NCBI RefSeq assembly: GCF_030686945.1
Contig: NW_027122681.1
Coordinates: forward strand, 1,866,938-1,930,937
Reading direction: 5' to 3'
Length of the DNA: 64,000 nt
DNA from: Centruroides vittatus
Lineage: Eukaryota
Shown here: positions 2,791 through 51,614 of the stretch, in pieces
Position numbering within the stretch: the first letter of the stretch is position 1
Layout of the letters: the number at the start of each line of letters is the position of its first letter
Made by a program: the position numbers and the translations under genes
The notes under the pieces: generated by a model
Databases searched by the model: none
What the model saw: the letters and a program-made list of their open reading frames with translations, nothing else
What the model was told of the DNA's origin: nothing

Positions 2791-3780
2791 TGTAATTAAA
2801 TTAAAACGGAAAATATTACTAAAATACAAGCTTAAATACTAATTGGAATTGGAATAAATTTGATTATTACTATTTAAAATTTCTAAATTAAATATTACGA
2901 TATTAAATGAAAAGAATGTGTAGAAATTATGCTACTTATCCTGGCTACTTATCCTGATTCTTTTATCTGGCGTCGGGAAGAGAAATTTTTAAGTAAAATT
3001 TCAAGTTGAAGGTCGTCAACCTGAAAGTAATATTCTTGTAAAAATTTGAAAAAAGTTCTATAAGACAAAACAATATAACTTACACAATTCATGGTTGCTT
3101 AAATTATAAATGAATTGATGACACTGACCCTGCGATAGTGTTCCTTTCAATGTTTTATTCCACTTCGATACTGAAGTTAGAGTTAACTGAATAAAACGTT
3201 TCTTATTTTATCTATATTTGACAGAATTTCGCTTTATGTATCGATTATATAATCAAGACGTTGCGTATTCATTTTTACATAAGACGCTTTGTTTTATTTT
3301 TTGTACTTGGTATTGTTAATCAAACACGAAATATAGCTTAGAAATCTCGGAATTAAACTACTTTTCATAGAAAATTATAATTTACATAAAATATGTTAAG
3401 AGAACTAACATTATTTTTTCAACAGATTTCTGTCTAAACTATTGCACATTTACGCACCTTCATTTTAATAATTTGAGGGTAATTATCTCAATTTGAACGA
3501 AAAGAAGCTCGAATCTAACAAAAGTCTGTTTATAAATCAATCTCGCTAATTTAATTCAACAATAATTTGTATAAATATCTCAACTTGAAGACGTAAATAT
3601 GTTTCGGGTCGATGCTCTATTAGAATTTATACTCAATATTAATTACATAAACAAAAACAAAGGATTACTTACTTCCGTGAGACTCGCCGAAACAGAATTC
3701 AGCAGAAACTTCCTGAAAAGAAACAACAATAAAAATCATTTATTGTTACAAACAATATGAAAAAGAACAATTATACATAG

Positions 3781-3826
3781 TATTGTTAAATACTCAACTA
3801 ACAATAGTATTGTTAGTTGAGTATTT
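3781..3826. repeat. Near-perfect palindrome/hairpin (AATACTCAACTAACAATAgtaTTGTTAGTTGAGTATT)
   Basis: The reverse complement of the left arm equals the right arm, giving a stem of about 19 bp. Confidence 0.8.
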
Positions 3827-5169
3827 TATCGCATCAATCGCGTCACTTATTACCTCAAAATTTCTACGATAAACCATTTAAGTCATCACTACGAATATTC
3901 AATAAGCTTTAAATTTCGTATAATTCGGATACCAGGGATTATCTGTGCGTGACATTTCAATTATGTTTACAGTTCGTAACGTCGTAAGGAATAGCGTAAC
4001 GATAATTGTACGTCTTTTCTGTAAAAAAACTTGTAGAGAATGCACCGGTCAAAGGCAGTAAAAGTGTAATTTTGTTTCAGAATATTACCGAAAAACGAAG
4101 AAAAAAAATTGTCGTCGTCGGACTGTTCGGAGTTCGAAAGTTTTCGGGAAATACGTCACACTGTGACTAAGGTTTCGAAATAGTAGTGTGACCGAATGTC
4201 GTCCTGCAACACACGTCTTGGTACACATATTGTCCGACAGAAAGCGTAAAGAGATTGTAATTGGAAGATAGTAATAAATTTGCGAAAAAATGTCAGTGTG
4301 AGTGGTGAATTCGTAGAAAATCGTGTCCATTATAGAAAATTACAAAAATATCTATGAAATTTTGTTTTAAATACAAGTTACGTAGTTATATTATTGGACA
4401 AAATTGTAAAAAGCAAGGCCGTAACGATTTTCCCTCTCAATCCAGGGGCCAAGCAATTTTTGAGACCCACAATCGGAAGACATTTTTATGTTCGTTGCAC
4501 TTGAATAACTCGTGTTTATTAGAAAAAAATTGCGTAGGTTACATAAAAGTTAACGAACCGAATTCACTACATTGATTCAGAGCAGCAGAACAGCATACTT
4601 TTTTTATATGCATGCCCCCGTGACAGCCATCTTCTTAAGTATTTTTCCATTTCGCATTTTTGCTAGTTGTATTTCGTATTATCGACAAACGGGAGTGCCT
4701 TGGTCAATTATATAGCAGTGTACAATTAAATGTAAAAAAGCATTTTTGTTAAAGCGAAAATTGTTGCAGGAAAAACATAGATAAATGTGATAAAATTATA
4801 ATTACATTTTATTTAAGGCTAAGCATCTAATGACGTAGCGTGATGATAAACCTTAATGTAGCACCGGAATACAATACATTAGCTATTTTTAATCGCATAC
4901 TCTTAAACCACTCAATGCGTACCACTAACTCTCACCTCTCTTCTAAACAGACGATCAATTGGCAGAAAACTAGAAATATTTTCTGATAATTTCTAATTGC
5001 CAGTTAACAGGAAACCCATTTATTGTGTGGATTCTTGAATTTTAATTGCGTTTTATTAAGTAGATTTAGTATAATACTATTCAAAATGAACTCCTTTCTT
5101 ATGCACAAAATACCATTGCCGCTTGAGTGAAAATTGTACTCTAATGATAATAAATAGCGAGGTTGGGGC

Positions 5170-5338
5170 TGTTATAATGTTGGATCTTGGTTGTATTTAA
5201 GACTAGTAAAGTTTAAGAACTATTTATTATAAACTATTAAATACAAGTGGACACAAACACGGTAAGTTGAATGACAGACGACTGACGACCGATGCTCTTG
5301 TTGGCCGCTGGTGTCGCCACCAGTACATATCGTAACAG
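5170..5338 (-). repeat. 3' LTR of the gypsy-like element
   Basis: About 95% identical to 14762-14935. Termini are TG..CA on the minus strand. It is preceded on the minus strand by a poly(A)/PPT-like tract (5341-5357). Confidence 0.7.
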
Positions 5339-8300
5339 TGTTTTTTTTTTTTTTTTGAAAATACAAACATTAACAATATATAGTATGTTTCCAAATTTTG
5401 TGGGCTTTCGTCATTCTCAGTAAAGGAAAATCTGCGAGGCTTATTTATCTGCCTGCCAGAGCGGGTTGTCCGAACACGGGGTTGTGCGGAGACAGGTTTA
5501 GTTATTTTGTCAGGTTCTGCTTCACTGTTCGCCTGCTCAGGAGTAATTGGACTAGATATAGGCATGCTGTTAACGGTATGTTTTATTTTCCAAGTTGGCA
5601 TTTCTGTTGTTCTAGGAGTCTTCAATAAATGATGTCTGTTTCTTCTATAGTGAATTCCATCCGGTGTTGTAATGACATGTTCTAGGCATTGGACTAACTT
5701 TGACAACAGAAGCAGGTGACCAAGGTTCTTTTGGACTCTTTTTATAGTATACTTCGTCTCTTTCCTTTAAAGGAAATAAGACTTTAGTGTGCTGGTCATA
5801 ATAGGTTTTAGCTTTACTCACTTCTTCTGCACGGATTTTATTGTAGTGTTGTATATCTATGACTCTTGGCCTCAACACAGTTTCGCTGACAGGGAGTTTC
5901 ATTCTCGGTGATCTAGACATCAGTAGTTGTGCTGGAGAATATCCACAAGGCAAAGGCGTATTTCTATATTGGAGCATTGCAATGTATGGATCTGAATTAT
6001 TTTCACGACACTTATTAAAAAGATGTTTAATAGTGCCAACAGCTCTTTCGACAAGACCATTGCTCTTGGAATAGTGTGGACTTGATGTTCTGTGAGTTAT
6101 ATCCCAACACTTTAGGAATAACCTCAATTCTTCTGAATTAAAAGCTGGACCATTATCAGAAACGATGACTACAAAAATTCCATGACGTGAAAAGATTGCT
6201 TTTAGATTTATTATGACTAGTTTAGCATTATTAGAACTGACTGAGACTAATTCAAAATATTTAGAAAAATAGTCTATGACTAGCAAATAAGTAATATTAT
6301 TATAATAAAAAAAATCTATGCCTACTTTTTGCCATGGCAGGTTGACATGCTCATGTAGAATAAGAGGCTCTTTATTGTTTGCTCTTCTAAATTTAATGCA
6401 GGCGTGACATTGCTCTACTTTTTTATATCGACATTTTTAAGTTAGGCCAATATACAACACTTCTTGCTTGTCTTTGGCATTTTTCGATGCCTAAATGACC
6501 TTCGTGAATAATGTCTAATATTTTGGAACGAAGACTTAAAGGAATTACAAGTAGACGACCTTTAAACAATAAACCATCGATGACATGTAGTTCTTGACGT
6601 ATATTAAAGTAAGGTTTTAATTGACAGTCAAGCTTGTTTCTTGATGTAGGCCACTCAGTAAGACAATGTTTCATAATGATTTGGAAATCCGCATCCATCA
6701 GGGTCGCTAGTTTAATCTCTTCTAGACGTTCAGAGGACACTGCAAGATTAGTCATCAATAAGTTTGCATGTATACGGAGATCTTCCTCTAGAGAATCCTC
6801 TGCATCGGGTGGATCTACTGGAGCCCTACTTAAAGTATCTGCTATGAACAGGAATTTGCCTGGTTTATATGTAACATTCAGATCATATTGTTGCAGATTC
6901 AGCATCATACGCTGTAGACGCACTGGCACTTCAGACAATGTCTCCAAAGGTTTATGATCAGTTTCCACAATGACCCGATGACCGTAAATATATTGACGAA
7001 ACCGGTTATAACCATACCGAATTGCATACGGTTCTTTTTCTATTTGAGCATAACGTGACTGACACTCTGACAATGACTTTGATGAATAGGCTATGGGTCT
7101 CTTGTTTTGTAGTATGACTGCACCAACTGCCGCCTTTGAACTATCCACAGAAAATGTTAAAGGCTTATTAGGATGGAAATAAGTTAAGACTGGAGCATTG
7201 CGTATTAACTCCTTTAATAATTGAAACTCTGACTGCTGTTTCTCTGACCAATGAAACGCTATATTCTTTCTTAACAATAGACGTAGGTTGACGGTTTTAT
7301 CAGCTAAGTTATCAATGTAAGATCCCAAATAATTTACCATTCCCAAAAAACGTTTAAGTTCTGTTATATCCTTTGGTGCTGGTATGTGACATATTGCACT
7401 AACTTTAGCTGGATCAGGACACATACCATTTTGACTAAAAATGTGATTTAAATACTTGACTTCTCTCATTAGAAAATGACACTTTATTAAACTTTAAATT
7501 AATTTGACGAGCTTTTTCTAGGACTTTTTGCAGTATCTCGTTATGGGATTCTAATGTTTGACCATAAATCAGTATATCATCAAGATATATCATGATTTCT
7601 TGTATGTCTGAGAACCAATCAGTCATGATTTTATGGAAAATTTCTGACTTGAAAATCACTTGACACACCATAAGGAAGACGCTTAAATCTAAATCTATCA
7701 AAAGGCGTATTAAATGTGGTTAGCCTCGAACTGTTTTCACTAAGTTTTATCATCCAGAATCCAGACTGTGCATCTAAAGTTGAAAAATACTTAGCACCAG
7801 ATAATTTTGACCTCAGTTCTTCTACAGTTGATAATGGATAATGACACCTCTTTATTGCTCTATTCAGATTTCTTGGATCTAGACAGACTCGCAATGACTT
7901 ATCTTTCTTTTCAACAATAACGACTGAATTTACCCATTCGGTAGGCTCACTTACTTTTGCTATAACATCTAAAGATTGCATACGTTCCAGTTCTTTTCTA
8001 AACCTTTCGTTTAACATAAACGGTATTTTTCTAGGCGGTTCTATCACTGGTACTTTATCTTTGTTAACGGATATATCATATTCACCTGGTAGACAACCAA
8101 GACCCCCGAATACATCTTTGTATTGCGACAGGACTGACTCATGATTATTGATTTTAAATACTCTTTTGACTAAACCTAGTCTTTGGATTGTAGGTAGCCC
8201 TATAATGGTCTGACTATCAGTATTGGTAATTATAAAATGAATACTAGCTGACAAATTATCATTGATTATACCATTGACTAACACCGTTCCCAAAACTTGT

Positions 8301-8485
8301 ATATCATTTACTGAGAATGACGTAAGCCTTACAGCCGTAGGTTGTATTTTTCTAGCAATTTTTAAACTTTTATAATTTCTTACTGACATTACATTAGCCT
8401 GAGCACTCGTATCCAAATTACACATTGTAACGTATATCAGAGTCTCTTGAGATTCGATGCCTATGAGCTTAGGACCAGGGGGCAA
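5227..8485 (-). pseudogene. pol: gypsy pol polyprotein (protease - reverse transcriptase - RNase H - integrase), broken by frameshifts and stops
   Basis: ORF 7631..8485 has protease LDTSAQ and the RT N-terminus (PxIEPPRKIPF, FSTLDAQSGFW). ORF 7435..7701 has YLDDILIYG. ORF 6423..7469 has RNase H (ETDHKPL) and the integrase zinc finger HEGHLGIEKC. ORF 5645..6286 is the integrase DDE core (VSDNGPAF, SNGLVER). ORF 5227..5706 is the integrase C-terminus and runs on into the LTR. Confidence 0.88.
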
Positions 8486-18533: not shown

Positions 18534-19717
18534 GAAACATCCCAGCAAAGAGACAACTGAAGGCTGATGCTGTACCAAATGTATTTCTTTGGTCTAAAAA
18601 AGAGGCACCTTCGGTTGCGAGCAGACGAGCAAGAAGAGAAAACCGTGAACGCAAAGTTCAAGATAATCATGATGCATGCTATATAATGGATACTGGTACA
18701 TTAGAAATAGGAGGAGAAGTAATAATAGATGAGGAGGAGGAAAAGGCTACTTGTCTTATTGAAAATAATGTGGCAAGCACTATGGTCTGTGTAACTACAC
18801 AGACCCATACTTTTGAAGTCCCAATGTCAGTTGAAAGATTTGAGTTTGACAACAATGCTATACATTACTATACTGGGTTAGAGAACTACAATTCTTTCAA
18901 TTTTGTACTACAAAGTTTGGGACCAGCAGCATACAGCTTAAAATATTACAAGTTTCAGGTTGTAACACTTGCAGTGCCAAACCAGTTGTTCTTGACTTTA
19001 ATAAAATTAAGATTGAATACAGCAAATTTTGAGTTGAGTAGGATGTTTAGTGTATCTGAAGAAACAGTACGAAACGTTTTCATTACTTGGATCAATTTCA
19101 TGTATTTACAATGGCAAGAGTTGGATATATGGAGTGAAAGATCTCTTGTTGATACATACATGCCTAGAGATTTTAAAATGAAATTTCCAAATACTAGAGT
19201 TATCATTGATTCTCTAGAATGCAAAATAAGCAAACCAAAAAATCCTGTTGCACAGCAGGCTACATGGTCATCATATAAAAATGACAACACATTAAAAGCA
19301 GTTGTAGGTTGCACACCAGGTGGTCTAGTAAGTTTTGTTTCAGAAGCCTATGGTGGTTCTGCAAGTGATCGACAGATTGCAGAAAGGTCTTCACTGTGTA
19401 AAATAACAGAGGCAAAAGACTGTGTAATGGCTGATAGAGGTTTTAACATTCAGGACTTGCTAATTACTAAAGATGTTGTGGTAAATACACCCACTTTTAT
19501 GAGAGGAAAAGCACAGCTGAGCAGCAGTTTGTTATCTCGAGACAGAAAAATATCTAGTAAAAGAATACATATTGAACGTATTATAGGAATGGCTCGTACA
19601 TATAAGATTTTGAGGCAACACATGCATCCGACAGTAACCAAACTTGGCAGTGAAATTATATTTATATGTTTTATGTTATGCAATTTTAGACCATGCATTG
19701 TTGGCAGAGATGCTTAA
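18534..19717 (+). CDS. THAP-domain DDE transposase, exon 2 (DDE_Tnp_4 / Harbinger-ISL2EU-like catalytic domain)
   Basis: The acceptor TTATTAG keeps the frame from exon 1 (phase 1). Motifs: VIIDSLECKISKP (first D), AVVGCTPGGLVSFVSEAYGGSASDRQI, VMADRGFNI (second D). Confidence 0.8.
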
Positions 19718-20089: not shown

Positions 20090-21530
20090 TTAATGTTTAT
20101 AGAACATCTTTTTTAAAAGAGCTGGCTTAAAATGCTCATGGAAAAACATAATTAGTGTTTCAGTCATGTCTGCAATAAATTTATCATCTCTTGGAATGAT
20201 AAAAACTTTGAAGTCACTTTTTGTGTAAATAAACAGGTGAGCAACTTGTCTATTTGTCACTGCTAATTGACCTTGGATTTGATAAAAATAATCATGATTC
20301 CGTTTTAAAGTAATTTTGTCATCAGTACATTCCAAATATGGTACATTTTGCACATTCACAGGAAGTTTAAAACTGGAGTAAGGACATTTAACTTCTAATA
20401 TTTTATCATCATCCACAAGCCCATCTGGACTTGCAGCTAAGAATGGGTATTTTGGATGAAGAAACATGCCACATTCTTTCACAGGAGTATTTTCAAAAGA
20501 AGAATATGCTTCAATTGCTTCTTTTTCATACCTTAAGCCATGAGAAATTGCCTTACTTTTTATTGGCCTACTTGACAGTAACGAGTCACACAATTTTAGT
20601 CTGTCTGCTGATTTTAATTTACAAACTTTTCCAAAGTTTGAAGATGTCAAACGCAACAAATGTTCCTTCTTCCAAACTGCACTTTTTCGTTGTAATCGGG
20701 TCTCTTTTTCCAAATGTTCTATGTACTCCCTACTTGCTTCAGTTACATGTAAAGCTTTTAAAAACATTTCGGACATTGTGCTTTTGCAATAATCATGATC
20801 TGACTCTAAAGCCCTCATGTTTGCTGGTTGCCTTAATTGTAATATCGGTATTGCACAACCACTTTGCATGTTCATTGCCAAATTAATAACAAAGTTTGTA
20901 TAATCAGAGATTGAACTGCCAGATGGTCTGGGGTCAAATTTCATGTCTTCCAATCGTTTCCTTTTCATTCCTCTCTTCTTAAATAAATGAAATGGAAGCT
21001 CACTAGCCTTAATTGGGGAACCTTTATGTTGGCGGGTAGGCTGATGGAATGTTTGCAGAACCTGAGTGCATGTTTTGTGACACTTATAATTGCCTGTTCT
21101 TCCGTATTCTTCTATTGCCAATAGTGTTACACATACATGTTTGCAATATGCTTTAGGCCCTTTACCTGCTGTACATTCACATATTGCATTTTCTATATCC
21201 CCATCATCTGTAATTACTAAATCTGTATAATATGTGTTCCCCTTGGTTAATTCAGATTTTACATTACCTTTAAAATATGAAAATTTTTTTTCTTTTGTTC
21301 CTCTTATTGTTAATAAGAATTCATTAAAATACATCTGCACAGCAGACAGTGGCATTCTTTGATCTGACATCTCCATGTAGGCATCAATTGTATCTATAGT
21401 CAAAACTGGTATTTGTAAACTTGGAGAGAGATCCTTATATTCAGATGAATCAGGAAGTTTGAGTTCAGGAGAGCTATCACAGGATATAGAAAAATTATGA
21501 GTTTCCTGATTCCTCTCATATGCCAGTAAC
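20090..21530 (-). CDS. SAP-SWIM-YqaJ protein, exon 2 (SWIM zinc finger + YqaJ/lambda-exonuclease-like PD-(D/E)xK domain)
   Basis: The acceptor TTTTCAG restores the frame (phase 2). SWIM CxCxnCxH is CECTAGKGPKAYCKHVCVTLLAI. The C-terminal region LTSSNFGKVCK...HGLRYEKEAIEAY...LAASPDGLVDD..ILEVKCPYS matches YqaJ-type exonuclease motifs. The ORF 20090..21550 is uninterrupted. Confidence 0.75.
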
Positions 21531-22336
21531 CTGAAAATTATTGTAAACAAGTTTAATAACTAGTTAACATATGATCACCAATATTTTATTTAGTTTTTTC
21601 TGTCTCATTGACAGGAAAGGCAAAAATTATTATTATATATTATATTCTTACCTTAATATATTACATATAATATAAAAATAAACAGTATAAGGTAACTGAA
21701 CAGTATTGACAAGCACCTAAATATGGCATATATATATAGTGTATGCCAGATTTAGTAAAAGAAAATGGGCAAAAATTCACTTGTACAAAAAGTTTATTGG
21801 TGAAGAAATTAGTCTTATTGCATTAAATTATTGAAACAAGTAAGAAGACTTGTGACCAATAAAAAAGACATTTTGATTATATTTATTTTAATTACTCCAA
21901 AAATTGTTTTCTCTTGGTAAAAGATTCAGATATATATCTCTTATATTGTCTTAGAACTTCATAGAAAGTAGTTTTGTTTGTGTTGATTGTTGTTCTAAAT
22001 TACAGTGATAACCTATTGGTACAGTTAACATTTCAGATACTGGTATAAATTGGTTATAATATATCAGGTTCAGTACATGACCATATTCCAAGAGGAAAAA
22101 ACTTCATTTTAAAGTTTTGACCTTATGTTTTGGTTAGGCAAATGTGAAAAGAATCAATGACAACTTTACTGATCTTTAAATGTTTTTATCGACGAAAAAT
22201 GTGCATTTTGTGAAATCTTATCCTTAAAACTTTCATCTACTGGTAAGTTACCTTATCATGTAATAGTTATAAGGACTTGAAATTATAAATGTAATAATTA
22301 ACGATAAAAATATAGATGTAGATTATTTTAACTTAC

Positions 22337-24908: not shown

Positions 24909-25322
24909 TTATCCAACACTAGAGACACCATCATCCATACAGTTACTACTTCGCGTACAACCTTTATATCCAATTAAGCTATCCCAGCATTCCGCTACAA
25001 TCACGCCATTATTCAAATTCATTGTGCTGGTTTGCATAATGATTGCGTAATGTTCTTTAAATTTACGTTTAGTTACATTTTTTTCCCGATGTAATATTTT
25101 AATGTTATTAGTATCGATAGAACAATTATTAGCCCGACAATGTAAAAATATTGGAGAAGCATTAATTTTAAGGCGTATCGAGACCAGGTGTTCCGACAAC
25201 CTTACTTGCAGTTTCTTTTTCGTTTCACCCACGTAAAAATTAGGAGTTTCGCAGGAACACGGAAGTCTGTAAACCACACCATCTTCTTCCAATAACTCTT
25301 TTTTCACATTAGGTCTTGTCAC
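24909..25322 (-). CDS. PLE GIY-YIG endonuclease domain (frame-shifted relative to the RT; the apparent start is a GTG artefact)
   Basis: The GIY...YVG and R..EH motifs are present. The upstream RT frame ends in a TGA overlapping by 1 nt. Confidence 0.75.
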   Translation of the reverse strand: MTRPNVKKELLEEDGVVYRLPCSCETPNFYVGETKKKLQVRLSEHLVSIRLKINASPIFLHCRANNCSIDTNNIKILHREKNVTKRKFKEHYAIIMQTSTMNLNNGVIVAECWDSLIGYKGCTRSSNCMDDGVSSVG

Positions 25323-26434
25323 AAGTCCAAATAACCTGTTTTTTGGATCGGAGCCAACTTAATTAGATTATTACATAAGATTTTTTGATATTTTTCAAAG
25401 ATACCTTTAACGTATGGGAAAGAGACATACTTATCTACCAGCTGTTTTTCTTCTTTTACTTGAAATCTGTTTTCTAAATATGTATTATACCACTTCTTAA
25501 GGAGTTTTTTTGGATAGCCGTTCAGTAGATATTTCTTATTTATTTCTTTAATTTCGTCTTCTCTTATGTTGGCTCTGGTCGTTCTAGAAAAGATCTTACG
25601 TATTTCCATTAAATATATATTTTTCTTTTGGTTAATTGGGCAATAAGATTTAAAGTATATTACTTTCCTTGCACTACAAGGTTTTTCATATTTGCAATAC
25701 TCTAAATGATTATCGAACCTAATAATTGTTAGGTCTAGGTAGTTAAGTCTGTTAAGCTTTTCACTTTCATGGGTAGACCTAATACATTTGTTAATCTTAT
25801 TAGCTTCTTCTACTATTTTTTCTGGAAACGTTACTTTACTATTATATATAAGGAATACATCATCTACGTACCGTACAAGGAACACTATTCCATTAATTGT
25901 TGACAGAATTTTATCTATATTAATCATGACTATTTCTGCTAGCTTTGGTCCTACAACGGAGCCCATAGAGATTCCGTCTTTCTGACGGTAGTATTTCCCG
26001 TTAACTGCAAAGAAGTTTTGTTCTAATACAAATTTAATTAAGTCTATTAAATGTTGTTCAACGTTGTACTTACTCAGACTTTGTGTAATTATTTCTTTAG
26101 TAATTGAAGGGTACATTGACTCTATGTCGAGGCTCATTAGCCCATATTCTGGTAGTATTCTTCCCGCTTCTAATTTTGAAATCGGGATGTCCGCATTTTT
26201 CACACTGAATGCCGAGTTTGTAATAACCTGCAAGGATTTTTTCAGAAAATTTTCTAGGTTATATAGTAAAGTCATCTCGAAATCCACGATGGGTCGACAT
26301 TTATTCTGTTTGTGTGTCTTTATGCGTATATTCAATTTTGGTATCCTTACATTTTCTTTTGGGAGCAATTCCTTACTTTCAGAAGTTGAAATAATGCCTT
26401 CCTTCAGCAAATTTTCTTTTAAGTTTTTCTTCAA
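25319..26434 (-). CDS. PLE reverse transcriptase
   Basis: RT motifs as listed for the internal copy. The N-terminus is probably incomplete. Confidence 0.8.
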   Translation of the reverse strand: MKKNLKENLLKEGIISTSESKELLPKENVRIPKLNIRIKTHKQNKCRPIVDFEMTLLYNLENFLKKSLQVITNSAFSVKNADIPISKLEAGRILPEYGLMSLDIESMYPSITKEIITQSLSKYNVEQHLIDLIKFVLEQNFFAVNGKYYRQKDGISMGSVVGPKLAEIVMINIDKILSTINGIVFLVRYVDDVFLIYNSKVTFPEKIVEEANKINKCIRSTHESEKLNRLNYLDLTIIRFDNHLEYCKYEKPCSARKVIYFKSYCPINQKKNIYLMEIRKIFSRTTRANIREDEIKEINKKYLLNGYPKKLLKKWYNTYLENRFQVKEEKQLVDKYVSFPYVKGIFEKYQKILCNNLIKLAPIQKTGYLDL

Positions 26435-31682: not shown

Positions 31683-31910
31683 TATTAGCGAGGTTGAGGC
31701 CGAAGTTTTCAACGCAAAAACGTGTACGTCGGAGGTTTGGCACCACTTTCCTGTAAGCCTAGAAGTTTGGCAATGGCCTTTGGAATGTCAATCATAATTC
31801 CACTGACTTTCCAAACGCCATTGCTAAACTTCTAGGCTTACAGGAAAGCGGTGCTGAACGTCCAACATACATGTTTTCACGTTGAAAACTTCGGCCTCAA
31901 CCTCGCTATT
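31683..31910. mobile_element. Foldback MITE, complete copy, in an intron of the WD40 gene
   Basis: TATTAGCGAGGTTGAGGCCGAAGTTTTCAACGC...CCTCGCTATT is from the same family. The ORF 31824..32015 overlaps this repeat and is spurious. Confidence 0.88.
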
Positions 31911-32071
31911 GTACATGTTTGATTCTTTTACATTTGTGCTGAAAATGGGGTTAAAAACATTAATATTTGATTTCCTTAAGCTAGTAGTACTTTGTATTAG
32001 ATGTAATTTATGCAAAAACTGGACTTGTATTAACTTATATCTTGATCCTTACATAAATTTCTCTCTTACAG

Positions 32072-32739
32072 GAAGTATTCCAGCACCAACAGCTGGATTT
32101 TGTCGGTGTGATATTTCAAAATTAAAGAATTTGATTGCTGTACCAGGTGAGAAAGCTTTCCAAATAGATTTGTACGATCTTGAAAAATGTAGTTTGGTAT
32201 CAACCCTCATACCAGAATCACCAGATAAATATGGAATGTGCATTTGTGTAAAATGGTTAAAGCCGGGAAACCATATTCTCTGTGGTTACGAAAATGGAAA
32301 AATTATCCTTTGGGACATAAATCAAGCAGCAGTATTGTCAGAATTAACATGTCACAAGGAACCAGTATTTGGATTAGATTTTGATGATTCTGTGAAGTGG
32401 GAAGGAATTACCTGTTCGGCAGAAGAAAAGCTTTGTGTATTTTCTATGAAAAATTTTTTGAGTCTGGTAGAAAAGAACTGCATTGTTTTGCCAACGACGG
32501 GTGCATCTTCTGTTGCAGTGAGACAGGATGGTAAAATTGTGGCATCTGGGGGATGGGATGGAATTATTCGCCTGTTTAGCTGGAAAACACTGAAACCACT
32601 TGCGTATCTAAATTTTCACAAATCAGCTATAAACTGTTTGAAATTTTATGATGGTAAATCAGAAAATCATGCAAAACTATTAGCTGCCGGCTCAAAAGAC
32701 AAAAGGATAACACTCTGGTCCATATATAGAGATAAATGA
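32072..32739 (+). CDS. WD40-repeat protein gene, last exon
   Basis: Pyrimidine tract plus CAG acceptor at 32069-32071. The sequence carries several WD repeats (ILCGYENGKIILWDI, IVASGGWDGIIRLFSW, LLAAGSKDKRITLWSI), and the stop is at 32737-32739. Confidence 0.8.
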
Positions 32740-41699: not shown

Positions 41700-42848
41700 C
41701 TTTTATAATTATTATTATTATTATTATGTTGGGTTAAGTGAGAGATACTCGGTTAACACCGGTGGTTAAGTACTATGCCGGACCAAAGTCAAGGCATAGT
41801 AACCAAAACAGAAATTAAAGAAGTGTATCAGTGTGTGTGTCTGTATTCAGGAATTTTCTCACAATATGACATGTATTCAATATAGTGGCCTTCTGTAGAG
41901 TGATATATGTGTTTCTATTCAATTCTAATGTGCCCAGGCTTTTGTGTAGTGTGTGTGGTATGACACCTGTAGAGGAGAGAACAACAGGTACAATAAGCAC
42001 CCTATCCATCCTCCACAGATGCCTTATTTCCTGGGCGAGTTCTGTGTACTTGCTAATTTTTTCAGTGCATGCGTTTTGTATATTGTGAGTGTTTGGAATG
42101 GATATGTCTATAATGTATGTGATTTTATTGTGTTTGTCAATGAGTGTGATGTCTGGTCTGTTGTGGTAAATTGTTTTATCTGTGATTATGGCTCTGTCGT
42201 AGTACATTTTGTGCTTGTTGTTTTCCAATACTGTCTGTGGAATGTATTTGTAGTATGGTTCGTGGATGTCTACTAATTTGTGTTTCTTTGCAAGCTCTTG
42301 GTGTATTATATTTGCTACTTGGTTATGTCTGTGTAAATAATCTGTCTGTGCCAAGAGCTTGCAACCAGAGGTGATGTGTTGTATAGTTTCTGGCATGATG
42401 TGACATTTTCTGCATGTGTCATTTGTGAGTGTTGCATCTTTGAGTATGTGTTTTCTGTAGTTTTTAGTATTTATGACCTGATCCTGTATGGCAATCATGA
42501 ATCCTTCCGTCTCCCCAAAGAGGCATCCCCGAGCTAACCAGCTGTTTGACGCAGTTTTGTCAACAAAATCCTGGGCCAGATCGTAAGGATGCCTGCCATG
42601 GAGTGCCTTTCGAGCCCACAATTGCTTAATGGTGTCTATGCTTTTTATATGTTGTGTTGTGTCCATATGATGTGAGTGTAAGTTTAATGGTGTGTTATTT
42701 GAGTCTGCTAGAGTTACTGCTTTATGTAATTGTGATGTTTCTTGTTTTTTGTAGAAAAACTCTCGCAGTGACTGTATTTGTTTGTAGTGAAGGTTAACTA
42801 TGTCAATCAGGCCACGTCCGCCATCTTTACGTGGAAGGGTTAATCTTT
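41700..42848 (-). mobile_element. 5'-truncated second copy of the same non-LTR element, inserted head-to-tail exactly at the (TAA)n tail of the full copy
   Basis: 42848 down to 41700 is about 97% identical to 43978 down to 42849. It ends in its own (TTA)n tail at 41704-41727 on the plus strand. ORF 41815..42666 equals the C-terminal 283 aa of the main ORF. Confidence 0.88.
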
Positions 42849-45800
42849 ATTATTATTATTATGGTTTAAGTTAGATATACTCGGTTAACACCGGTGGCTG
42901 TGTACTATGCCGGACCAAAGTCAAGGCATAGTAACCAAAACAGAAATTAAAGAAGTGTATCAGTGTGTGTGTCTGTATTCAGGAATTTTCTCACAATATG
43001 ACATGTATTCAATATAGTGGCCTTCTGTAGAGTGATATATGTGTTTCTATTCAATTCTAATGTGCCTAGGCTTTTGTGTAGTGTGTGTGGTATGACACCT
43101 GTAGAGGAGAGAACAACAGGTACAATAAGCACCCTATCCATCCTCCACAGATGCCTTATTTCCTGGGCGAGTTCTGTGTACTTGCTAATTTTTTCAGTGC
43201 ATGCGTTTTGTATATTGTGAGTGTTTGGAATGGATATGTCTATAATGTATGTGATTTTATTGTGTTTGTCAATGAGTGTGATGTCTGGTCTGTTGTGGTA
43301 AATTGTTCTATCTGTGATTATGGCTCTGTCGTAGTACATTTTGTGCGTGTTGTTTTCCAATACTGTCTGTGGAATGTACTTGTAGTATGGCTCATGGATG
43401 TCTACTAATTTGTGTTTCTTTGCAAGCTTTTGGTGTATTATATTTGCTACTTGATTATGTCTGTGTAGATAATCTGTCTGTGCCAAGAGCTTGCAACCAG
43501 AAGTGATGTGTTGTATAGTTTCTGGCAAGACGTGACATTTTCTGCATGTGTCATTTGTGAGTGTTGCATCTTTGAGTATGTGTTTTCTGTAGTTTTTAGT
43601 ATTTATGACCTGATCCTGTATGGCGATCATGAACCCTTCCGTCTCCCCAAAGAGGCATCCCCGAGCTAACCAGCTGTTTGACGCAGTTTTGTCAACAAAA
43701 TCCTGGGCCAGGTCGTAAGGATGCCTGCCATGGAGTGCCTTTCGAGCCCACGATTGCTTAATGGTGTCTATGCCTTTTATATGTTGTGTTGTGTCCATAT
43801 GATGTGAGTGTAAGTTTAATGGTGTGTTATTCGAATCTGCTAGAGTTACTGCTTTATGTAATTGTGATGTTTCTTGTTTCTTGTAGAAAAACTCTCGCAG
43901 CGACTGTATTTGTTTGTAGTGAAGGTTAACTATGTCAATCAGGCCACGTCCGCCATCTTTACGTGGAAGGGTTAATCTTTCTGTGGCGGATTTAGGATGA
44001 TGTTGTTTATGCTTAGTAAGTGTTGTTCTTGTTTTCCTTTGGAGTTGCTCAAGATCTGTGTGAGTCCAATGTATAACTCCAAAAGAATATGTGAGTACTG
44101 GGATGACATATGTATTTATTGCTTTAACTGTGTGTTTTGCATTTAACTGTGTTCTGAGAATAGCATTTAGCCTACTTTGGTATTCTTTAATTAATCTTTG
44201 CTTTATTTGTGTATGTTCTGTTAGTTTGGCCTGTTGGAATCCTAAATACTTGTAGAACTCACCCTCTTCCATGGATTCAATAACGTCTCCATTTCCAAGC
44301 GCAAAATCTTCTTTCTTCAGGATTCCTTTTTCTATGTGAAGTGTTTTGCATTTATCTAGGCCAAATTCCATTTGTATGTCCTTGGTGTATGAATGTGTGA
44401 TTTGTAGGAGTTGATGAAGTTGTTTTTGTGTGGATGCATAAAGTTTTATGTCATCCATGTACATGAGATGTGACAGTGTATACTGTGTTGTTTTTTCATG
44501 CCTGATATTGTAGCCATATTGTGTGTTGTTTAACATGTTGGATAATGGATTCAAGGCTAGGCAGAACCAGAGAGGACTCAAGGAATCTCCTTGAAAAATT
44601 CCTCGCCTAATAAAAATTTGGTTTGTTTGTATGAAAGTGTTATGAACCCTGAGATGTAGTGTTGTTCTCCAGTGCTGCATAGTGTTTTGAAAGAATGCAA
44701 TGAGTGATGGATGTATTTTGTACATGTGTAGGATATGTAGCAGCCAACTGTGTGGAACACTGTCGAATGCTTTTCTGTAGTCTATATATGCCATGTGTAT
44801 GTTTCTGTGTTGTCTGTGTGCTTGCCGTAGAATGACTGAATCTATGAGTAACTGTTCTTTGCATCCCCTGTGGTTTCTACGACAACCTTTTTGTTGTTCT
44901 GTAAGAATGTCGTGTTCTTCAATATGTTTGTATATTTTGTTTGTGATACAGGATGTCAATAATTTGTAGAGTGTTGGAAGACATGTAATTGGTCTGTATT
45001 GTGTGGGGTCTGTGGTATTGTTGTTTTTAGGTTTCATGTAGGTGATGCCCTGAGTAAGAAAATTTGGCATGTCTTGTGGATTGATGATGATGTGTGTTAG
45101 ATGTTTAGCTAGTTCCTGGTGCAGTGATGTAAACTTTTTGTACCAGAAATTGTGAATGTTGTCTACACCAGGTGTCTTCCAGTTGTGTGTTCTGTTAACA
45201 GTGTATTGGAAATCATGTATGTTTATTTCAACACAGGGCATAGTTGGTATGTTGTGCAAGTTTCTGTTCTCCTCCTCGATCCAGCCTGCATCAGCATTGT
45301 GCGTGACAGCACTGGACCAAAGAGAAGACCAATATGTTGTGAGTTCTTCTTCTGTTGGTGTGCCACTGTGCTGTGTATCAGTGTTTGCTTTGTTATTAAT
45401 TTGTCTGTAAAAGAGTTTTTCATTGTTTGTAAATAATTTATTTTGTTGTTTTCGTAGTGTACATGTTTTGTATCGTTTGAGTCTACGTGCTTTGGCAGCA
45501 AGTTTTTGTTTTAGTGTATCAATGTATTCTGTAATGCGTGTGTTGTGATGTTCATGTTTTGTGTGTGTTTTTATTTTCTTGAAAATGTTTTTGAGCTGTT
45601 TCCTTAATTTGGGTGTTATGTTGTTTTTAGTGTATTGTGTTAGCCTGCCTAATTGCTGTCTAATGTCATTAATTTGTGTTTCTATTCTTCTCTGCCAGGC
45701 AGGTTTGTGATAGAATTGTGTTTTCTGTGTATTTGTCTGTGATTGTACTTTCAGTCCATGGTGTGTCACTACTGTGACTGCCCCAGCATAAACTAATGTA

Positions 45801-46800
45801 TGAATGTCTGCGAGTGTAGAAATTGAATGAATGTAGTGTGGTAGTAAGTGAGTGTTTACATAATTTAGTGTTTTTCCTACTTCCTTTGACGTGTTGATTT
45901 TTGGTATTCGTGGTCGTTGTGTGGGATCTGTACCTGTATATTTAGTGAGTGTTTCCTGAAATATAAGTGAGAGCGTATTAACTAAATCCAAGTCTATGTT
46001 ATCAGTGATGGATGAGGAAGTGTCTGTAGTATCATTAGTGGTAATTGTTGTATGTGTGTTATTATCAATGCTTGTTGCTGGATTATCCTGACAGGTTACA
46101 TGATCTTCATTAATGTTAGATGTTTCTGTCTGTTGATGTATTTGATCAGCAACCTGTTGTTTGATAAGTTCAAGTGTTGTTTGTGCAATAAGGTTGTTGT
46201 GTATAATTGTTCTTTTTTGATCAACAACCCTTTGTTCGGTGACAGTGAGATGAGGATACTGTTGTGTGAATCTATGGTGTAGTTGTTGTCTGTATGCTGT
46301 CATGTTTGTTTCGAGTTTTGTGATGGTGTAATAAGTACGGATGATAAACTCGTTCATTTCTACTGTCCATTTCATCCGTTGGCGTGGTTTTCCAGCCTTT
46401 GTGGTCTGTGGATGCATTGCCACAGAAACACCAAGGCTGGGTTGGTTCCTCACATCTGTTGAGGGCATTGCAGTAGCCATGCTTGGGCCGGTGCTGCTTT
46501 CGCCACCAGTAACCAAGGGAGACTGTGGCCTATTTTTCGAACGTGAGCCTCTGCCTAACCCACGAACGCGGACCTTGTTAACCCGGGCGACGTCCGAGCC
46601 GGTATCACACTTTGATCTAGTTATTACCATGATGAATATCTCCACAGAATGTGGGTGTGGTCACTCTTAGCTTCATTTCTCCCCATAGACCTTACTGGCA
46701 TGGGTGTCCCTACCAGGAGCTTATGCTCCAGCCTGCATTGCCCTATGGATCAGTAAAATTACTGGGCTCTCCCACCACGACCAGGTGGTGACCACGGGAG
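42849..46800 (-). mobile_element. Full-length R2/R4-superfamily (restriction-like endonuclease) non-LTR retrotransposon; the 5' boundary is approximate
   Basis: A single 1232-aa ORF is present. The 3' UTR ends in a (TAA)n/(ATA)n tail, seen as ttattattattattatgg on the plus strand at 42849-42865. Confidence 0.85.
42947..46645 (-). CDS. Non-LTR retrotransposon ORF: Myb-like N-terminal region, reverse transcriptase, CCHC zinc finger and PD-(D/E)xK restriction-like endonuclease
   Basis: RT motifs FQGDSLSPLWF and YMDDIKLY. The C-terminal CRKCHVLPETIQHITSGCKLLAQTDYLHRHNQVANII is the R2-type CCHC motif. RPDITLIDKHNKITYIIDISIP is an R2-type PD..D/ExK nuclease. The ORF is uninterrupted. Confidence 0.9.
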   Translation of the reverse strand: MEIFIMVITRSKCDTGSDVARVNKVRVRGLGRGSRSKNRPQSPLVTGGESSTGPSMATAMPSTDVRNQPSLGVSVAMHPQTTKAGKPRQRMKWTVEMNEFIIRTYYTITKLETNMTAYRQQLHHRFTQQYPHLTVTEQRVVDQKRTIIHNNLIAQTTLELIKQQVADQIHQQTETSNINEDHVTCQDNPATSIDNNTHTTITTNDTTDTSSSITDNIDLDLVNTLSLIFQETLTKYTGTDPTQRPRIPKINTSKEVGKTLNYVNTHLLPHYIHSISTLADIHTLVYAGAVTVVTHHGLKVQSQTNTQKTQFYHKPAWQRRIETQINDIRQQLGRLTQYTKNNITPKLRKQLKNIFKKIKTHTKHEHHNTRITEYIDTLKQKLAAKARRLKRYKTCTLRKQQNKLFTNNEKLFYRQINNKANTDTQHSGTPTEEELTTYWSSLWSSAVTHNADAGWIEEENRNLHNIPTMPCVEINIHDFQYTVNRTHNWKTPGVDNIHNFWYKKFTSLHQELAKHLTHIIINPQDMPNFLTQGITYMKPKNNNTTDPTQYRPITCLPTLYKLLTSCITNKIYKHIEEHDILTEQQKGCRRNHRGCKEQLLIDSVILRQAHRQHRNIHMAYIDYRKAFDSVPHSWLLHILHMYKIHPSLIAFFQNTMQHWRTTLHLRVHNTFIQTNQIFIRRGIFQGDSLSPLWFCLALNPLSNMLNNTQYGYNIRHEKTTQYTLSHLMYMDDIKLYASTQKQLHQLLQITHSYTKDIQMEFGLDKCKTLHIEKGILKKEDFALGNGDVIESMEEGEFYKYLGFQQAKLTEHTQIKQRLIKEYQSRLNAILRTQLNAKHTVKAINTYVIPVLTYSFGVIHWTHTDLEQLQRKTRTTLTKHKQHHPKSATERLTLPRKDGGRGLIDIVNLHYKQIQSLREFFYKKQETSQLHKAVTLADSNNTPLNLHSHHMDTTQHIKGIDTIKQSWARKALHGRHPYDLAQDFVDKTASNSWLARGCLFGETEGFMIAIQDQVINTKNYRKHILKDATLTNDTCRKCHVLPETIQHITSGCKLLAQTDYLHRHNQVANIIHQKLAKKHKLVDIHEPYYKYIPQTVLENNTHKMYYDRAIITDRTIYHNRPDITLIDKHNKITYIIDISIPNTHNIQNACTEKISKYTELAQEIRHLWRMDRVLIVPVVLSSTGVIPHTLHKSLGTLELNRNTYITLQKATILNTCHIVRKFLNTDTHTDTLL

Positions 46801-47807
46801 AGTTATAATAATAATAATAATAATAATAATAATTACTACTACTAATTATCGTCACTCCTCTAATCTTTATAGATAATGAAGGAGTCATCCACATATAAAT
46901 TATATTATACGTTCATTTGTTTTAAATACAAAGTGCTTCAAAGGAAGATTAACACTAATATGGAGGTAACTTGTTATGCATTAAATGTCCTCTGCATAGT
47001 TCTGCAAGAAGTCACAATCCAATTGTGGAGTTCTCAAAAAAGTATGGCCCTACTAACTCTGCCAGTGCCTGTGCATCTTCTCCATGTAAGTGTTGACATT
47101 TTTTTGAAGCATTCTATAATAAGGTCAAGCAATCCTCACCTTTTGGACAACTTTCTCTTCCATATACAATATTTTGATTCTCCATTTTTTGCACATCTAA
47201 TTCAGATTTTCATTTAACAAAGAAAAATTTAAAGCTATTATTCAATGGTTTCTGCCAGTTTTGGTTTGGTAATGTCAAAATCATTTGTGAAAATTAATTT
47301 TTGTTTGTTTGTTTTCTGAACAGAAAAAAGTTATCTACATTTATCTATATATCTCTTATCTATAGTTTAAACAAAACATTTTATGTATTATAACATGTTC
47401 ATTGTAGCAAATTAAAATTTTACTATCTCAATGAGAGAGTTCATAATTGCAAAATTACAAAAATGAAAGACTAATATAAAAATATTTGGAAGCCTTCAAC
47501 ATGTCCATTCCAACTGCCAAACACAATCAACACTAGACTTTTTGCAAAGAAAATTTTACAACTATTCAATGCCAGAGAAACTTTTAAACAATTTACATAA
47601 GTGTAGGCAGAAAAGATCCTATAAAGAAAGGTTGACTCAACTTGTGTTGATTGCATTCTGACTGTTGAAATGGATGATGTGTGAAAGTCTTAATATTTTT
47701 TATATCAATCTTTGTTTTTGTAAATTTATAATATATTTTATCCTGGATTTTTAAAATTTTAGAGTTCATAACTTTTCTTTTTAGCTTTCTGCAAATGGAA
47801 CTCCATT

Positions 47808-47955
47808 TACCGTATTTTACGGACTATAAGACGCACTTTTTTCTTCGAAAAATTGCTTCCAAAATTCAGGTGCGTCTTATAGGTATTTTTTTAAAAAAAT
47901 TGCTTAAAAATTAAGGTGTGTCTTATAGTCCGTAGCGTCTTATAGTCCGTAAAAT
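47808..47955. mobile_element. Small MITE with ~27-bp terminal inverted repeats (CCGTATTTTACGGACTATAAGACGCAC)
   Basis: Left arm 47808-47836. The right arm GCGTCTTATAGTCCGTAAAATACGG at 47928-47955 is its reverse complement. There is an internal partial duplicate GTGTGTCTTATAGTCCGTAGCGTCTTATAGTCCG. Confidence 0.7.
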
Positions 47956-48682
47956 ACGGTACATGCTGATATTTTCATCACATTTTGTGGTGGGAAATTT
48001 AATGGTGAAGTTTCATACAACAGACTTGAACCACCCTGTACAAAATATAACTTTATTGTTTGACCTTTAAATATTTGACTTTCACATTTTTAGAAACATA
48101 TTACATCTGAAAGCTGAAGATTGCATGTATAAAAATGAAAATTTGATGATATACTAGTTCAGGGCTGCCCAACCTTTTCATGCACAAGTTACTTTTTTTT
48201 CCTAAGAGCGACATTACAGTCCACTAGCACAAGAAAGTGGCACACCTGTTCTGCCATCAGTCACCAAACTATTAACAAATTATGTAGTGCTGTAAAGAAA
48301 GGATGCCAAGTACATTTGTCTCTAGATGCTGAGTCATCACAAGCACTATAAAATTGTTTAAACTGTATTATGTACTTACTGGAGTACACTGGAATATGAA
48401 CAACTACTGGGACTGGTCACAGATTCTGAAACAAGAATAGACTCCATTTGCCATTGATAAAGGATTCCCAGCCAAGGGATTGTTTTTGCTTGCAACACTA
48501 TCAATACTAGTGATGACATCTACCACGTTTTCCATTATTCAGCGAGACGTCAGCGAGATGTCAGCGCAGTGATAAAACTCGTTCCATATTTTAGCTCGCT
48601 TGCAGCGCCATCTCAAAACGCTTACAAAATTTCGTTAGCGAGGTTAAGAAGCGCTAACTTTTTGCTAAGAGAACAAGCGAAG

Positions 48683-50690: not shown

Positions 50691-51614
50691 TTATACACAC
50701 TCTAAATTAAAAAGGTAATCTGCAATTTGATCCCTTTTATATGCACCACTGGCATTCTTATCAATATTTGCACCAGACTGTTCTGTACCGTGGCAAGAAA
50801 GTAAATCCAGTTGATCATATACGTCAGGTGAAGAATCATTATGCATAATACATAGGTTATGTAGAACGCAGGCAGCTACAATCACATCTGGAACAAATTC
50901 CCTTCTTCGTACATAGATGTAAATTAGCTTCCGAAATCGTCCAAACAGATGTGCAAAGGCTTGTTCTATTACGACTCGTGTAGAACTCAGAATTTTATTG
51001 AAGAACTTCTGCTTTCTTGTTAAATGACCATTGTTTTTATATGGTGTCATTATTTTATTGTTCAATGGGTAGGCACAGTCACCAAGAATGTGGCAGTCTG
51101 AAGGGATAAAATCCTCTCTCTCTTCCATATTTTTAAATAACGGACTGTTTCTAAAAACTCTAGCATCATTTGCAGAGCCTGGCCAACCTGCATAAATGTC
51201 CAAAAATTTCAACTCATGATCACATACAGCCTGTAGGATTACACTAGGATAACCTTTTCTATTTATATGATCATTTTTTTCTTCTTTATTCACAGAAAAG
51301 GCAATATGGGTGCCATCGATGCAACCGATTGTTCCTGGAAATGGTTTCACTCTAAGTTTCTCAAATCCTTGTCTTATCCTCTCAATCTCAAAACCCTGTG
51401 GCATCCTAATGACTGAGATTGACAAAGCACAGATTGATGTACAGAATTTTGTAAATTCTCTGTGGCCACTAGCAAATCCTAACCCGAAGCGGTCACATAC
51501 ACCACGGTAGCTCTCCTGGTTCCCCATAAACCACAGAGAAAATAAAACAGATGTTTCCTTAGGAATTCGTGCTTTTCTCCTTGCTGGTTCCTGTGGCAGC
51601 ATAGATAGCAAAAT
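50691..51614 (-). CDS. Harbinger DDE transposase (HARBI1-like), exon 2 with the DDE_Tnp_4 catalytic core
   Basis: Acceptor T13-AG. Catalytic motifs IGCIDGTHI, GWPGSANDARVF and ILGDCAYPL are present, and the frame is uninterrupted to the stop. Confidence 0.88.
   Translation of the reverse strand: MLLSMLPQEPARRKARIPKETSVLFSLWFMGNQESYRGVCDRFGLGFASGHREFTKFCTSICALSISVIRMPQGFEIERIRQGFEKLRVKPFPGTIGCIDGTHIAFSVNKEEKNDHINRKGYPSVILQAVCDHELKFLDIYAGWPGSANDARVFRNSPLFKNMEEREDFIPSDCHILGDCAYPLNNKIMTPYKNNGHLTRKQKFFNKILSSTRVVIEQAFAHLFGRFRKLIYIYVRRREFVPDVIVAACVLHNLCIMHNDSSPDVYDQLDLLSCHGTEQSGANIDKNASGAYKRDQIADYLFNLECV

Follow-up and report, generated by a model that had tools for sequence, protein, structure and literature searches.

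An intact Dong-type retrotransposon with a head-to-tail, 5'-truncated copy in the genome of a Centruroides-like scorpion

The two element copies at the locus

The 64-kb window considered here, that is, the whole stretch of DNA that was analysed, carries on its minus strand a retrotransposon without long terminal repeats (a non-LTR retrotransposon), together with a shorter copy of the same element. With a probability of about 85%, we read the pair as a full-length and apparently functional copy of a Dong-type element, from the R4 clade of the restriction-like endonuclease (RLE) group, joined head to tail to a 5'-truncated copy from a different source lineage, in the genome of a Centruroides-like scorpion. 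The full copy holds a single open reading frame (ORF; 42947..46645, minus strand). An earlier reading, made from the sequence alone and called the sequence-only reading below, had described it as uninterrupted over 1232 amino acids (aa), and we confirmed this length, counted from a GTG at 46645. Homologues open with METRSK, and in the window MVITRSK is encoded from an in-frame ATG at 46630; therefore translation probably starts at this ATG and gives a product of 1227 aa. An exact-protein look-up with the ORF returned no match.

Self-BLAST of the window revealed exactly one further copy of the element and no other match. The second copy (41715-42848) aligns without gaps to nucleotides 2825-3958 of the element, its last 1134 nt, at 97.44% identity. 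As a feature it occupies 41728..42848 (minus strand) and comprises the last 343 codons, which are still open, and the 3' untranslated region (UTR). The full copy ends in a (TAA)5 tail (42847..42862, minus strand), which forms the junction with the second copy and is the presumed target of the second insertion. The sequence-only reading had the element end in (TAA)n and a truncated copy begin within that tail at 42848/42849, and both statements held, with up to 3 nt of ambiguity in the breakpoint (microhomology AAA with the full-copy tail). The truncated copy has a (TAA)6 tail of its own (41703..41727, minus strand), which runs into a candidate 7-bp target-site duplication (TSD), ATTATAA. On the sense strand, the 5' flank ...GTAGTAGTA(ATT)9ATAA is followed by the full copy (CTCTCCC ... 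CAT(AAT)4AA), the truncated copy (AGATTAACC ... CAT(AAT)6) and the 3' flank of the composite (TATAAAAGTAG).

The two copies differ at 29 positions. Over the 343 shared codons we counted 14 synonymous and 7 non-synonymous differences, and both frames are open. The synonymous divergence (dS) is 0.067 and the non-synonymous divergence (dN) 0.0087, giving a dN/dS of 0.129 (p 9e-6 against neutrality), and the 3' UTRs differ by 8%. The bias toward synonymous differences points to two source lineages that diverged under selection, so that, judged from their sequences, the truncated copy comes from a different active lineage than the full copy. The identity of about 97% and the intact ORF had been taken as signs of recent activity; the intact ORF and the low dN/dS do fit recently active lineages.

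Protein domains and clade placement

Near its N-terminus the ORF encodes a Myb/SANT-like three-helix DNA-binding domain (46166..46393, minus strand; about aa 85-160), and no zinc finger was found in the ORF upstream of the reverse transcriptase (RT). This is the arrangement described for R4/Dong elements, which have a diverged N-terminal Myb/SANT-like domain and lack zinc fingers (PMC7998251). The RT domain (44237..45031, minus strand; aa 539-803) contains FQGDSLSPLWF, has YMDD at 729-732 and matches Pfam RVT_1 with an E-value of 6e-30. RVT_1 was the sole match in a Pfam scan of the ORF; in particular, no domain of the Exo_endo_phos/apurinic-apyrimidinic endonuclease (APE) type was found. Further downstream lie a CCHC zinc knuckle with an RHN motif (43457..43546, minus strand; C1034, C1037, H1046, C1051, R1062-H1063) and the core of a PD-(D/E)xK restriction-like endonuclease (43178..43291, minus strand; RPD1121, IID1136IS, EK1152ISK1155Y). 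In an alignment of 28 family members, all the named residues of the knuckle and the RHN motif, P1120-D1121 and K1152/K1155 are invariant, and D1136 is nearly so.

Sequence and fold comparisons with R2 agreed with these assignments. In HMMER searches against the PDB, the ORF matched solved R2 proteins over the RT and thumb (E 1e-31). Residues 1033-1205 matched as well, with CRKC, H, C, RHN, RPD, IIDIS and EK..KY aligned to the CCHC and nuclease motifs of R2; the R2 counterpart of the CCHC/RHN region reads CRHC...HI..NC...RHN. An AlphaFold2 model of aa 1000-1232 reached a mean confidence (pLDDT) of 93.4 and template-modelling (TM) scores of 0.71-0.76 to the C-terminal domains of four R2 cryo-electron microscopy structures (E 5e-10 to 5e-6), and the next fold matches after R2 were PD-(D/E)xK cap-snatching nucleases. 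The order of RT, CCHC knuckle and PD-(D/E)xK nuclease in a single ORF, without an N-terminal APE domain, is that of RLE-type elements. All of these motifs had been named in the sequence-only reading, and Pfam, HMMER and the fold match bear them out. The domains are thus present in the ORF; their activity is presumed from sequence. An APE-type long interspersed element, such as the R1-clade, microsatellite-specific Kibi, Koshi or Waldo, was rejected, given the lack of an Exo_endo_phos match and the C-terminal position and PD-(D/E)xK type of the nuclease.

For the placement of the element, the reference alignment was taken from the supplement of Eickbush et al. 2013 (PMC3774820) and spans the YADD motif to the C-terminus; the reference set consisted of Dong, R4, 31 R2 elements, Hydra R8, Baggins and L1Tc. 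We also fetched relatives of the element at nine genomic or assembled loci and 80 metagenomic loci, given below by L numbers. Over the 508 aa aligned between YMDD and the C-terminus, the window protein shares 54.5% of its residues with Bombyx Dong (537 bits). Its identity is 23% to Ascaris R4 (E 3e-31) and about 20% to R2 elements (E 5e-19 or worse). A neighbour-joining tree was built from 46 taxa and 461 columns with Kimura distances, 200 bootstraps and Baggins as the outgroup. The bootstrap values were 76% for the window element with Dong and the lepidopteran relatives, 88% for the insect Dong group, 86.5-88% for R4 with all Dong-like sequences, and 98% for R2/R8, with the window element outside. 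The element had been proposed to be Dong-like and of the R4 clade, with a phylogeny including R2, R4 and Dong as the check; in this tree it indeed groups with Dong (76-88%) inside the R4 clade and apart from R2/R8. By these measures of its sequence, the element is a Dong-type member of the R4 clade in the RLE group of non-LTR retrotransposons.

Within the tree, the scorpion element stands beside lepidopteran Dong-like sequences, with the hemipteran ones outside. The best database matches of the protein are 41-57% identical, and the named ones come from Lepidoptera and psyllids, although the window is bark-scorpion DNA; none of the cluster names of the relatives carries a curated 'Dong' label. 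The adjacency of scorpion and lepidopteran sequences may reflect an old horizontal transfer; by itself it does not show one, given the identity of about 55% and the many paralogous lineages. With about 55% identity to its nearest available sequences, the family is a new one; the kind of element that it represents, with its target, its ribozyme and its Myb-like domain, is well known.

The type (TAA)n-specific element of the R4 clade is Dong of Bombyx mori (GenBank L08889), for which Xiong & Eickbush 1993 is reportedly the source. Besides the 54.5% identity, the window element has in common with it a single ORF with Myb-like domain, RT, CCHC knuckle and RLE, a (TAA)n tail and a 5' ribozyme like that of hepatitis delta virus (HDV), predicted here, that begins at the element's first base. 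It differs from Dong in family (about 55% aa identity), in having a chelicerate as host, in a ribozyme of the shape CUCUCCC..., as in L004 and L086, rather than the GCCCCC... of Dong, L002 and L003, and in the inverted orientation of the repeat upstream of it. R4 of Ascaris lumbricoides (U29445), for which Burke, Muller & Eickbush 1995 is said to be the source, targets 28S rDNA. It belongs to the same clade and shares the RLE architecture and a junction-cleaving HDV-like ribozyme; it differs in its 23% identity and in its target, the window element being associated with (TAA)n. Further known Dong elements are DongAg (Anopheles gambiae), DongBg (Biomphalaria glabrata) and Dong1/Dong2 (Darwinula stevensoni), whose hosts are insects, a snail and an ostracod; here the host is a scorpion. 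In R2 (R2Bm, R2Tg; structures 8gh6, 9dou, 9nl3), RT, CCHC and RLE are homologous to those of the window element by sequence and fold, and by analogy both would use target-primed reverse transcription (TPRT) and a 5' HDV-like ribozyme. R2 is nevertheless only about 20% identical and has N-terminal zinc fingers and 28S rDNA insertion sites. The R2 clade was rejected for the window element, which has no such finger and falls outside the R2/R8 group (98%); an Rfam search of the 64-kb window found no rRNA.

The predicted ribozyme, the 3' UTR and the (TAA)n target

The first 146 nt of the element (46657..46802, minus strand), which lie in its 5' UTR, are predicted to form an HDV-like self-cleaving ribozyme with a nested double pseudoknot. 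P1 (CUCUCCC at 46802-46796 with GGGAGAG at 46773-46767) begins at the element's first base, P2 pairs GUGGUC with GACCAC (46662-46657), and P3 pairs ACCAC with GUGGU. J4/2 is GCUAAGAGU, which resembles GGCUAAG of the antigenomic HDV ribozyme, and the candidate catalytic C is at 46670. Cleavage is predicted to occur between 46803 and 46802. Shuffled sequences gave minimum-free-energy folds as good as that of the 5' UTR (z -0.6); the HDV-like fold is a pseudoknot, and hence we used a descriptor search. With the junction as the anchor of this search, an equally good score was reached by 2 of 100 dinucleotide shuffles.

The same architecture was found at the same (TAA)n|5' junction in L004 and L086, with compensatory variants in P1, P2 and P3. 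The helices are CCCCCCC/GGGGGGG (P1) and GGGU/ACCC (P2) in L004, and ACUCUAC/GUAGAGU (P1) and CUCUGG/CCAGAG (P2) in L086. L002, L003 and L089 carry the Dong-type version, and the 5' end of L003, GCCCCCCAAAATCCAACC, matches the published 5' end of Dong, GCTCCCTAAAATCCTACC, at 15 of 18 positions. The Dong ribozyme is experimentally active: its 5' end reads (TAA)7|GCTCCCTAAAATCCTACC, and Bombyx Dong RNA cleaves itself exactly at the 5' junction, releasing a 21-nt (TAA)7 product (PMC3774820). From the predicted structure, the covariation and this analogy with Dong, we infer that the window ribozyme is catalytic. As a separate observation, some distant (TAA)n-tailed relatives have a 5' end right after the upstream repeat that is tRNA-like, not ribozyme-like. 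ARAGORN calls a tRNA-Gly(CCC) at L011 84-168, and L013 (about 10-85) and L007 (about 110-190) merely look similar. In such elements the 5' end of the RNA may be set by other means, via RNase P/Z or RNA polymerase III.

At the other end of the element, the 3' UTR of the full copy (42863..42946, minus strand) contains two hairpins, CUAUGCC-UUGACUUUGGUCCG-GCAUAG and CGGU-GUUA-ACCG, and is likely the region recognised by the RT, with weak formal support for its structure. Two modules recur in the window (42863-42946, 41728-41814) and in relatives, including L002-L006, L009, L086, L088-L090 and others. Module 1 is a stem around U(U/A)GG...CCCG. Module 2, C-[4-7-bp hairpin]-AGA, lies about 10-25 nt ahead of the tail, and its stem sequences vary between elements. 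With a strict descriptor, module 2 was recovered in 13 of 49 relatives, compared with 6% of shuffles; a strict descriptor of both modules was partially supported, with the window's own hairpin narrowly failing. RNAalifold returned no structure from a MAFFT alignment of twelve 3' UTRs, in which loops of unequal length were misaligned.

Within the 64 kb, TAA-type runs of at least six units occur only at 41708-41725, in the tail, and at 46805-46831. Both touch the element, and therefore the association with microsatellites is not a matter of chance. The 5' run (46805..46833, unstranded), which is also the only one of at least eight units, is (ATT)9 when read in the sense direction, with (TAG)3TAA and ATAA at its borders. 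On the plus strand the tails read (TTA)n and this run reads (ATA)n; it is thus inverted relative to the tails. The sequence-only reading had cited (ATA)n at 46805-46830 in support of the target. The run does lie at the element's end, and its orientation means that it is no same-orientation remnant of a target.

We regard the 46805-46833 repeat as probably part of an (AAT)n run that preceded the insertion. The candidate TSD, ATTATAA, lies at 46803-46809 and 41703-41709, around the composite of full and truncated copies, and as low-complexity sequence it is tentative. Removing the composite in silico leaves a plus-strand site ...CTACTTTTATAAT(AAT)~9TACTAC..., with the reconstructed pre-insertion edge TTTTATAAT|(AAT)n. 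If the TSD is right, insertion would have taken place at the edge of an (AAT)n run that was already there, an edge formed by the palindrome TTATAA, and the orientation would be unusual. The inverted (ATT)9 could then stem from flipped engagement at the palindromic edge, or from a compound (ATT)n(AAT)m whose second half has merged into the tails. That it is the tail of an oppositely oriented neighbour was rejected, as the body of such a neighbour would overlap the element's own ribozyme.

The relatives allowed the target to be examined more widely. Their 3' ends carry (TAA)n within 60-250 nt of the ORF in 44 of 58 scorable cases. Upstream, a sense-oriented (TAA)n was present in 19 of the 23 relatives with enough upstream sequence, and an inverted repeat alone in none. 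It stands directly before the first base in L004, L008, L013, L015, L021, L027, L029, L030, L043, L071, L086 and L088, and a few to about 12 nt upstream in L002, L003 and L023. Comparing the 5' junctions of truncated copies had been suggested as a further check; those in L089 and L090 are likewise preceded by (TAA)n. These counts support (TAA)n specificity across the family, as far as sequence comparison goes, and such specificity is established for Dong (PMC3812793, PMC7998251). Thus, insertion into TAA microsatellites and resident tails, as the sequence-only reading proposed, is supported across the relatives; at this locus the outer repeat is inverted, and a template jump cannot be told apart from an insertion into the tail.

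L002 and L003 have TSDs of 12-16 bp that start where a TAA-like tract ends, and therefore the second-strand nick would lie 12-16 bp downstream of the first. These are Parnassius/Vanessa relatives, with TSDs of about 15 bp (ATAAATCCTTTATTT; L002 2365-2391, 6545-6567) and 12 bp (AACAATTAATAT; L003 2378-2389, 6377-6388). At L004 2150-2297, a Loxostege copy lies within a Tc1/mariner-like transposase frame (...LRSALVEEWSNI) that runs into (ATA)6, and the 3' flank does not continue the frame. A few deep lineages end in other tails, namely (ATT)n, (TC)n, (TA)n, (GAT)n or poly-A. In the same clade, L032/L039/L041 have (ATT)n, L038/L044 (TC)n, L034/L040 (TA)n, L026 poly-A and L070/L081 (GAT)n(AAT)n. 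In the tree, tail type and grouping go together, suggesting repeated switches of the microsatellite target.

Origin of the pair and its surroundings

Head-to-tail pairs on the same strand were also found in L008, L011, L024, L054, L070, L074 and L089, and L086 is a wrap-around contig; remnants of 3' UTRs lie upstream of L021, L029 and L030. The downstream member of these pairs is often 5'-truncated. The DNA identity between partners ranges from 98% and 92% down to no similarity, the partners in L024, L054, L070, L074 and L008 being unrelated. For such heterologous pairs, successive insertions into the tails of resident copies are the best explanation. In the window, the most likely order is that the full copy came in at the edge of the pre-existing (AAT)n run and that its tail later received the truncated copy. 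The candidate TSD flanks the composite and is absent at the junction, which favours this order.

A single event could leave a similar pair if, during TPRT, the RT ran off a broken first RNA and continued, by an end-to-end jump, at the 3' tail of another RNA of full length. The truncated copy next to the 3' flank, the full-length copy upstream of it, the complete (TAA)5 between them and the sole candidate TSD around the whole composite are all compatible with such a jump, and the RT of the related R2 is known to jump templates in this way. However, a dS of 0.067 and 8% divergence of the 3' UTRs would require two different RNAs in one ribonucleoprotein, and the unrelated partners among the relatives are easier to understand as separate tail insertions. 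We therefore consider a template jump unlikely, while giving it some weight. Almost no weight is left for an origin other than retrotransposition, in which a single resident copy was duplicated locally in tandem or by unequal crossing-over. The two copies do lie side by side on one strand and align gaplessly at 97.4% identity, as a duplication would have them. Nevertheless, the 14:7 bias toward synonymous differences (dN/dS 0.13, p 9e-6) reflects selection in active lineages, not neutral decay, and rules local duplication out. In addition, the second copy starts at a clean tail junction with microhomology, as 5'-truncated TPRT products do, and the heterologous pairs of the relatives are impossible by duplication.

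The target and the clade were weighed in the same way. If there were no real (TAA)n specificity, the (TAA)n tail would simply be carried along, the element would land in AT-rich DNA and the neighbouring microsatellites would be incidental. The 5' repeat in the wrong orientation, the imperfect TAA-like tracts that L002 and L003 adjoin with their 12-16-bp TSDs instead of lying within pure repeats, and a host genome of about 30% GC could all be read in this way. On the other hand, both runs of at least six units in 64 kb touch the element, sense (TAA)n stands directly before the 5' ends of relatives, including 5'-truncated ones that could not have carried element-derived upstream sequence, and Dong's specificity is established in the literature (PMC3812793, PMC7998251). 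The chance that specificity is absent thus appears slim. Slimmer still is the chance that the element belongs to another RLE clade (HERO, NeSL/Utopia or CRE) and is merely Dong-like. These clades are not among the tree references, which leaves some room for it; yet a clade other than Dong/R4 is very unlikely on sequence grounds because of the 54.5% identity over 508 aa to Dong, the type element, which together with R4 defines the group. The Myb-like N-terminus without zinc fingers, the (TAA)n tail and the predicted junction-cleaving ribozyme all match R4/Dong as well.

Several points weigh against our interpretation of a functional Dong-type element with a tail-inserted partner. The 5' repeat is inverted, unlike that of all 19 relatives with a scorable upstream repeat, and a canonical same-orientation target is not visible 5' of the element. 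Some of the (TAA)n upstream of the relatives could have come from a neighbouring copy's tail or from template jumping, and would then not be a naive target. The host-genome copies compared were the two in the window, and the tree, a neighbour-joining one, has no NeSL, CRE or HERO references. Individually, the ribozyme descriptor scores just modestly above shuffles, and Rfam finds no ribozyme, nor any other RNA family, either at gathering thresholds over the whole window or in a permissive scan of the 5' UTR. Finally, the activity of the element is something we infer from its sequence.

A life cycle consistent with these features can be proposed. The element would be co-transcribed from upstream sequence, and the 5' HDV-like ribozyme would free the RNA at the element's first base. 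The single ORF would supply the Myb-like DNA-binding domain, the RT, the CCHC knuckle and the PD-(D/E)xK nuclease. The protein would bind its own 3' UTR, recognise (TAA)n.(TTA)n DNA and nick the TTA strand, and reverse transcription would be primed on the (UAA)n RNA tail; this step is proposed by analogy with what has been established for R2 and Dong. Short TSDs, as seen in L002 and L003 and tentatively in the window, would result from a second nick placed between a few and about 16 bp further downstream. Incomplete reverse transcription would leave 5'-truncated copies joined at microhomology, such as the AAA at the window junction. Each insertion would add a new (TAA)n tail, so that resident tails become targets and head-to-tail arrays grow.

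A further and more doubtful reading joins tail targeting and the junction-cleaving ribozyme into one system, takes the inverted (ATT)9 as flipped engagement of (TAA)n at the palindromic TTATAA edge and leaves an old horizontal transfer open. If it were true, head-to-tail arrays, often of unrelated Dong-like families, would be self-processing polycistronic units: any transcription entering from upstream would read through the array, and the full-length members would each release themselves by cleavage. An element that lands in a resident tail would in this way gain transcription, and tail insertion would be more than a side effect of target choice. This possible link between tail targeting and ribozyme processing is a minor lead, and the flipped-orientation junction and the heterologous arrays are likewise minor, testable leads on how R4/Dong enzymes read their target.

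More generally, the element documents an apparently active member of the Dong family in a chelicerate, which matters little beyond annotation, and the locus illustrates cleanly how its own tails let a retrotransposon that targets microsatellites accumulate in head-to-tail arrays. The enzymes of R4/Dong elements are compact, carry out TPRT at specific sites and are relatives of R2, itself now being engineered to insert genes. As a sequence resource, an intact member whose ribozyme, 3' UTR and simple-repeat target are defined is usable.

As for the host, a WD40 ORF at 31882-32739 (plus strand) is an exon of GNB1L, 95% identical to GNB1L of Centruroides vittatus as against 42% for ticks, which assigns the window to a Centruroides-like scorpion and not to a lepidopteran. 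The surroundings of the element are rich in transposable elements. ORF fragments at 5227-8485 (minus strand) with integrase core, RNase H and RT are remnants of the pol of a Ty3/gypsy-type LTR retrotransposon. PIF/Harbinger-type transposases are represented by DDE_Tnp_4 ORFs at 18686-19717 (plus strand) and 50691-51611 (minus strand), one of them also with HTH_Tnp_4. Two further mobile-element remnants are a 486-aa ORF with a YqaJ-like exonuclease domain (20090-21550, minus strand) and, apart from it, an ORF of 371 aa that carries an RT domain (25319-26434, minus strand). A palindromic element of roughly 160 bp (47804-47965), situated on the 5' side of the Dong copy at a distance of about 1 kb, has nested inverted repeats and 31-nt terminal arms that are 97% complementary, and looks like a miniature inverted-repeat transposable element. 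A low-complexity ORF of 405 aa at 1612-2829 (minus strand) gave several Pfam matches with no individually significant stretch, and these matches are probably compositional artefacts.

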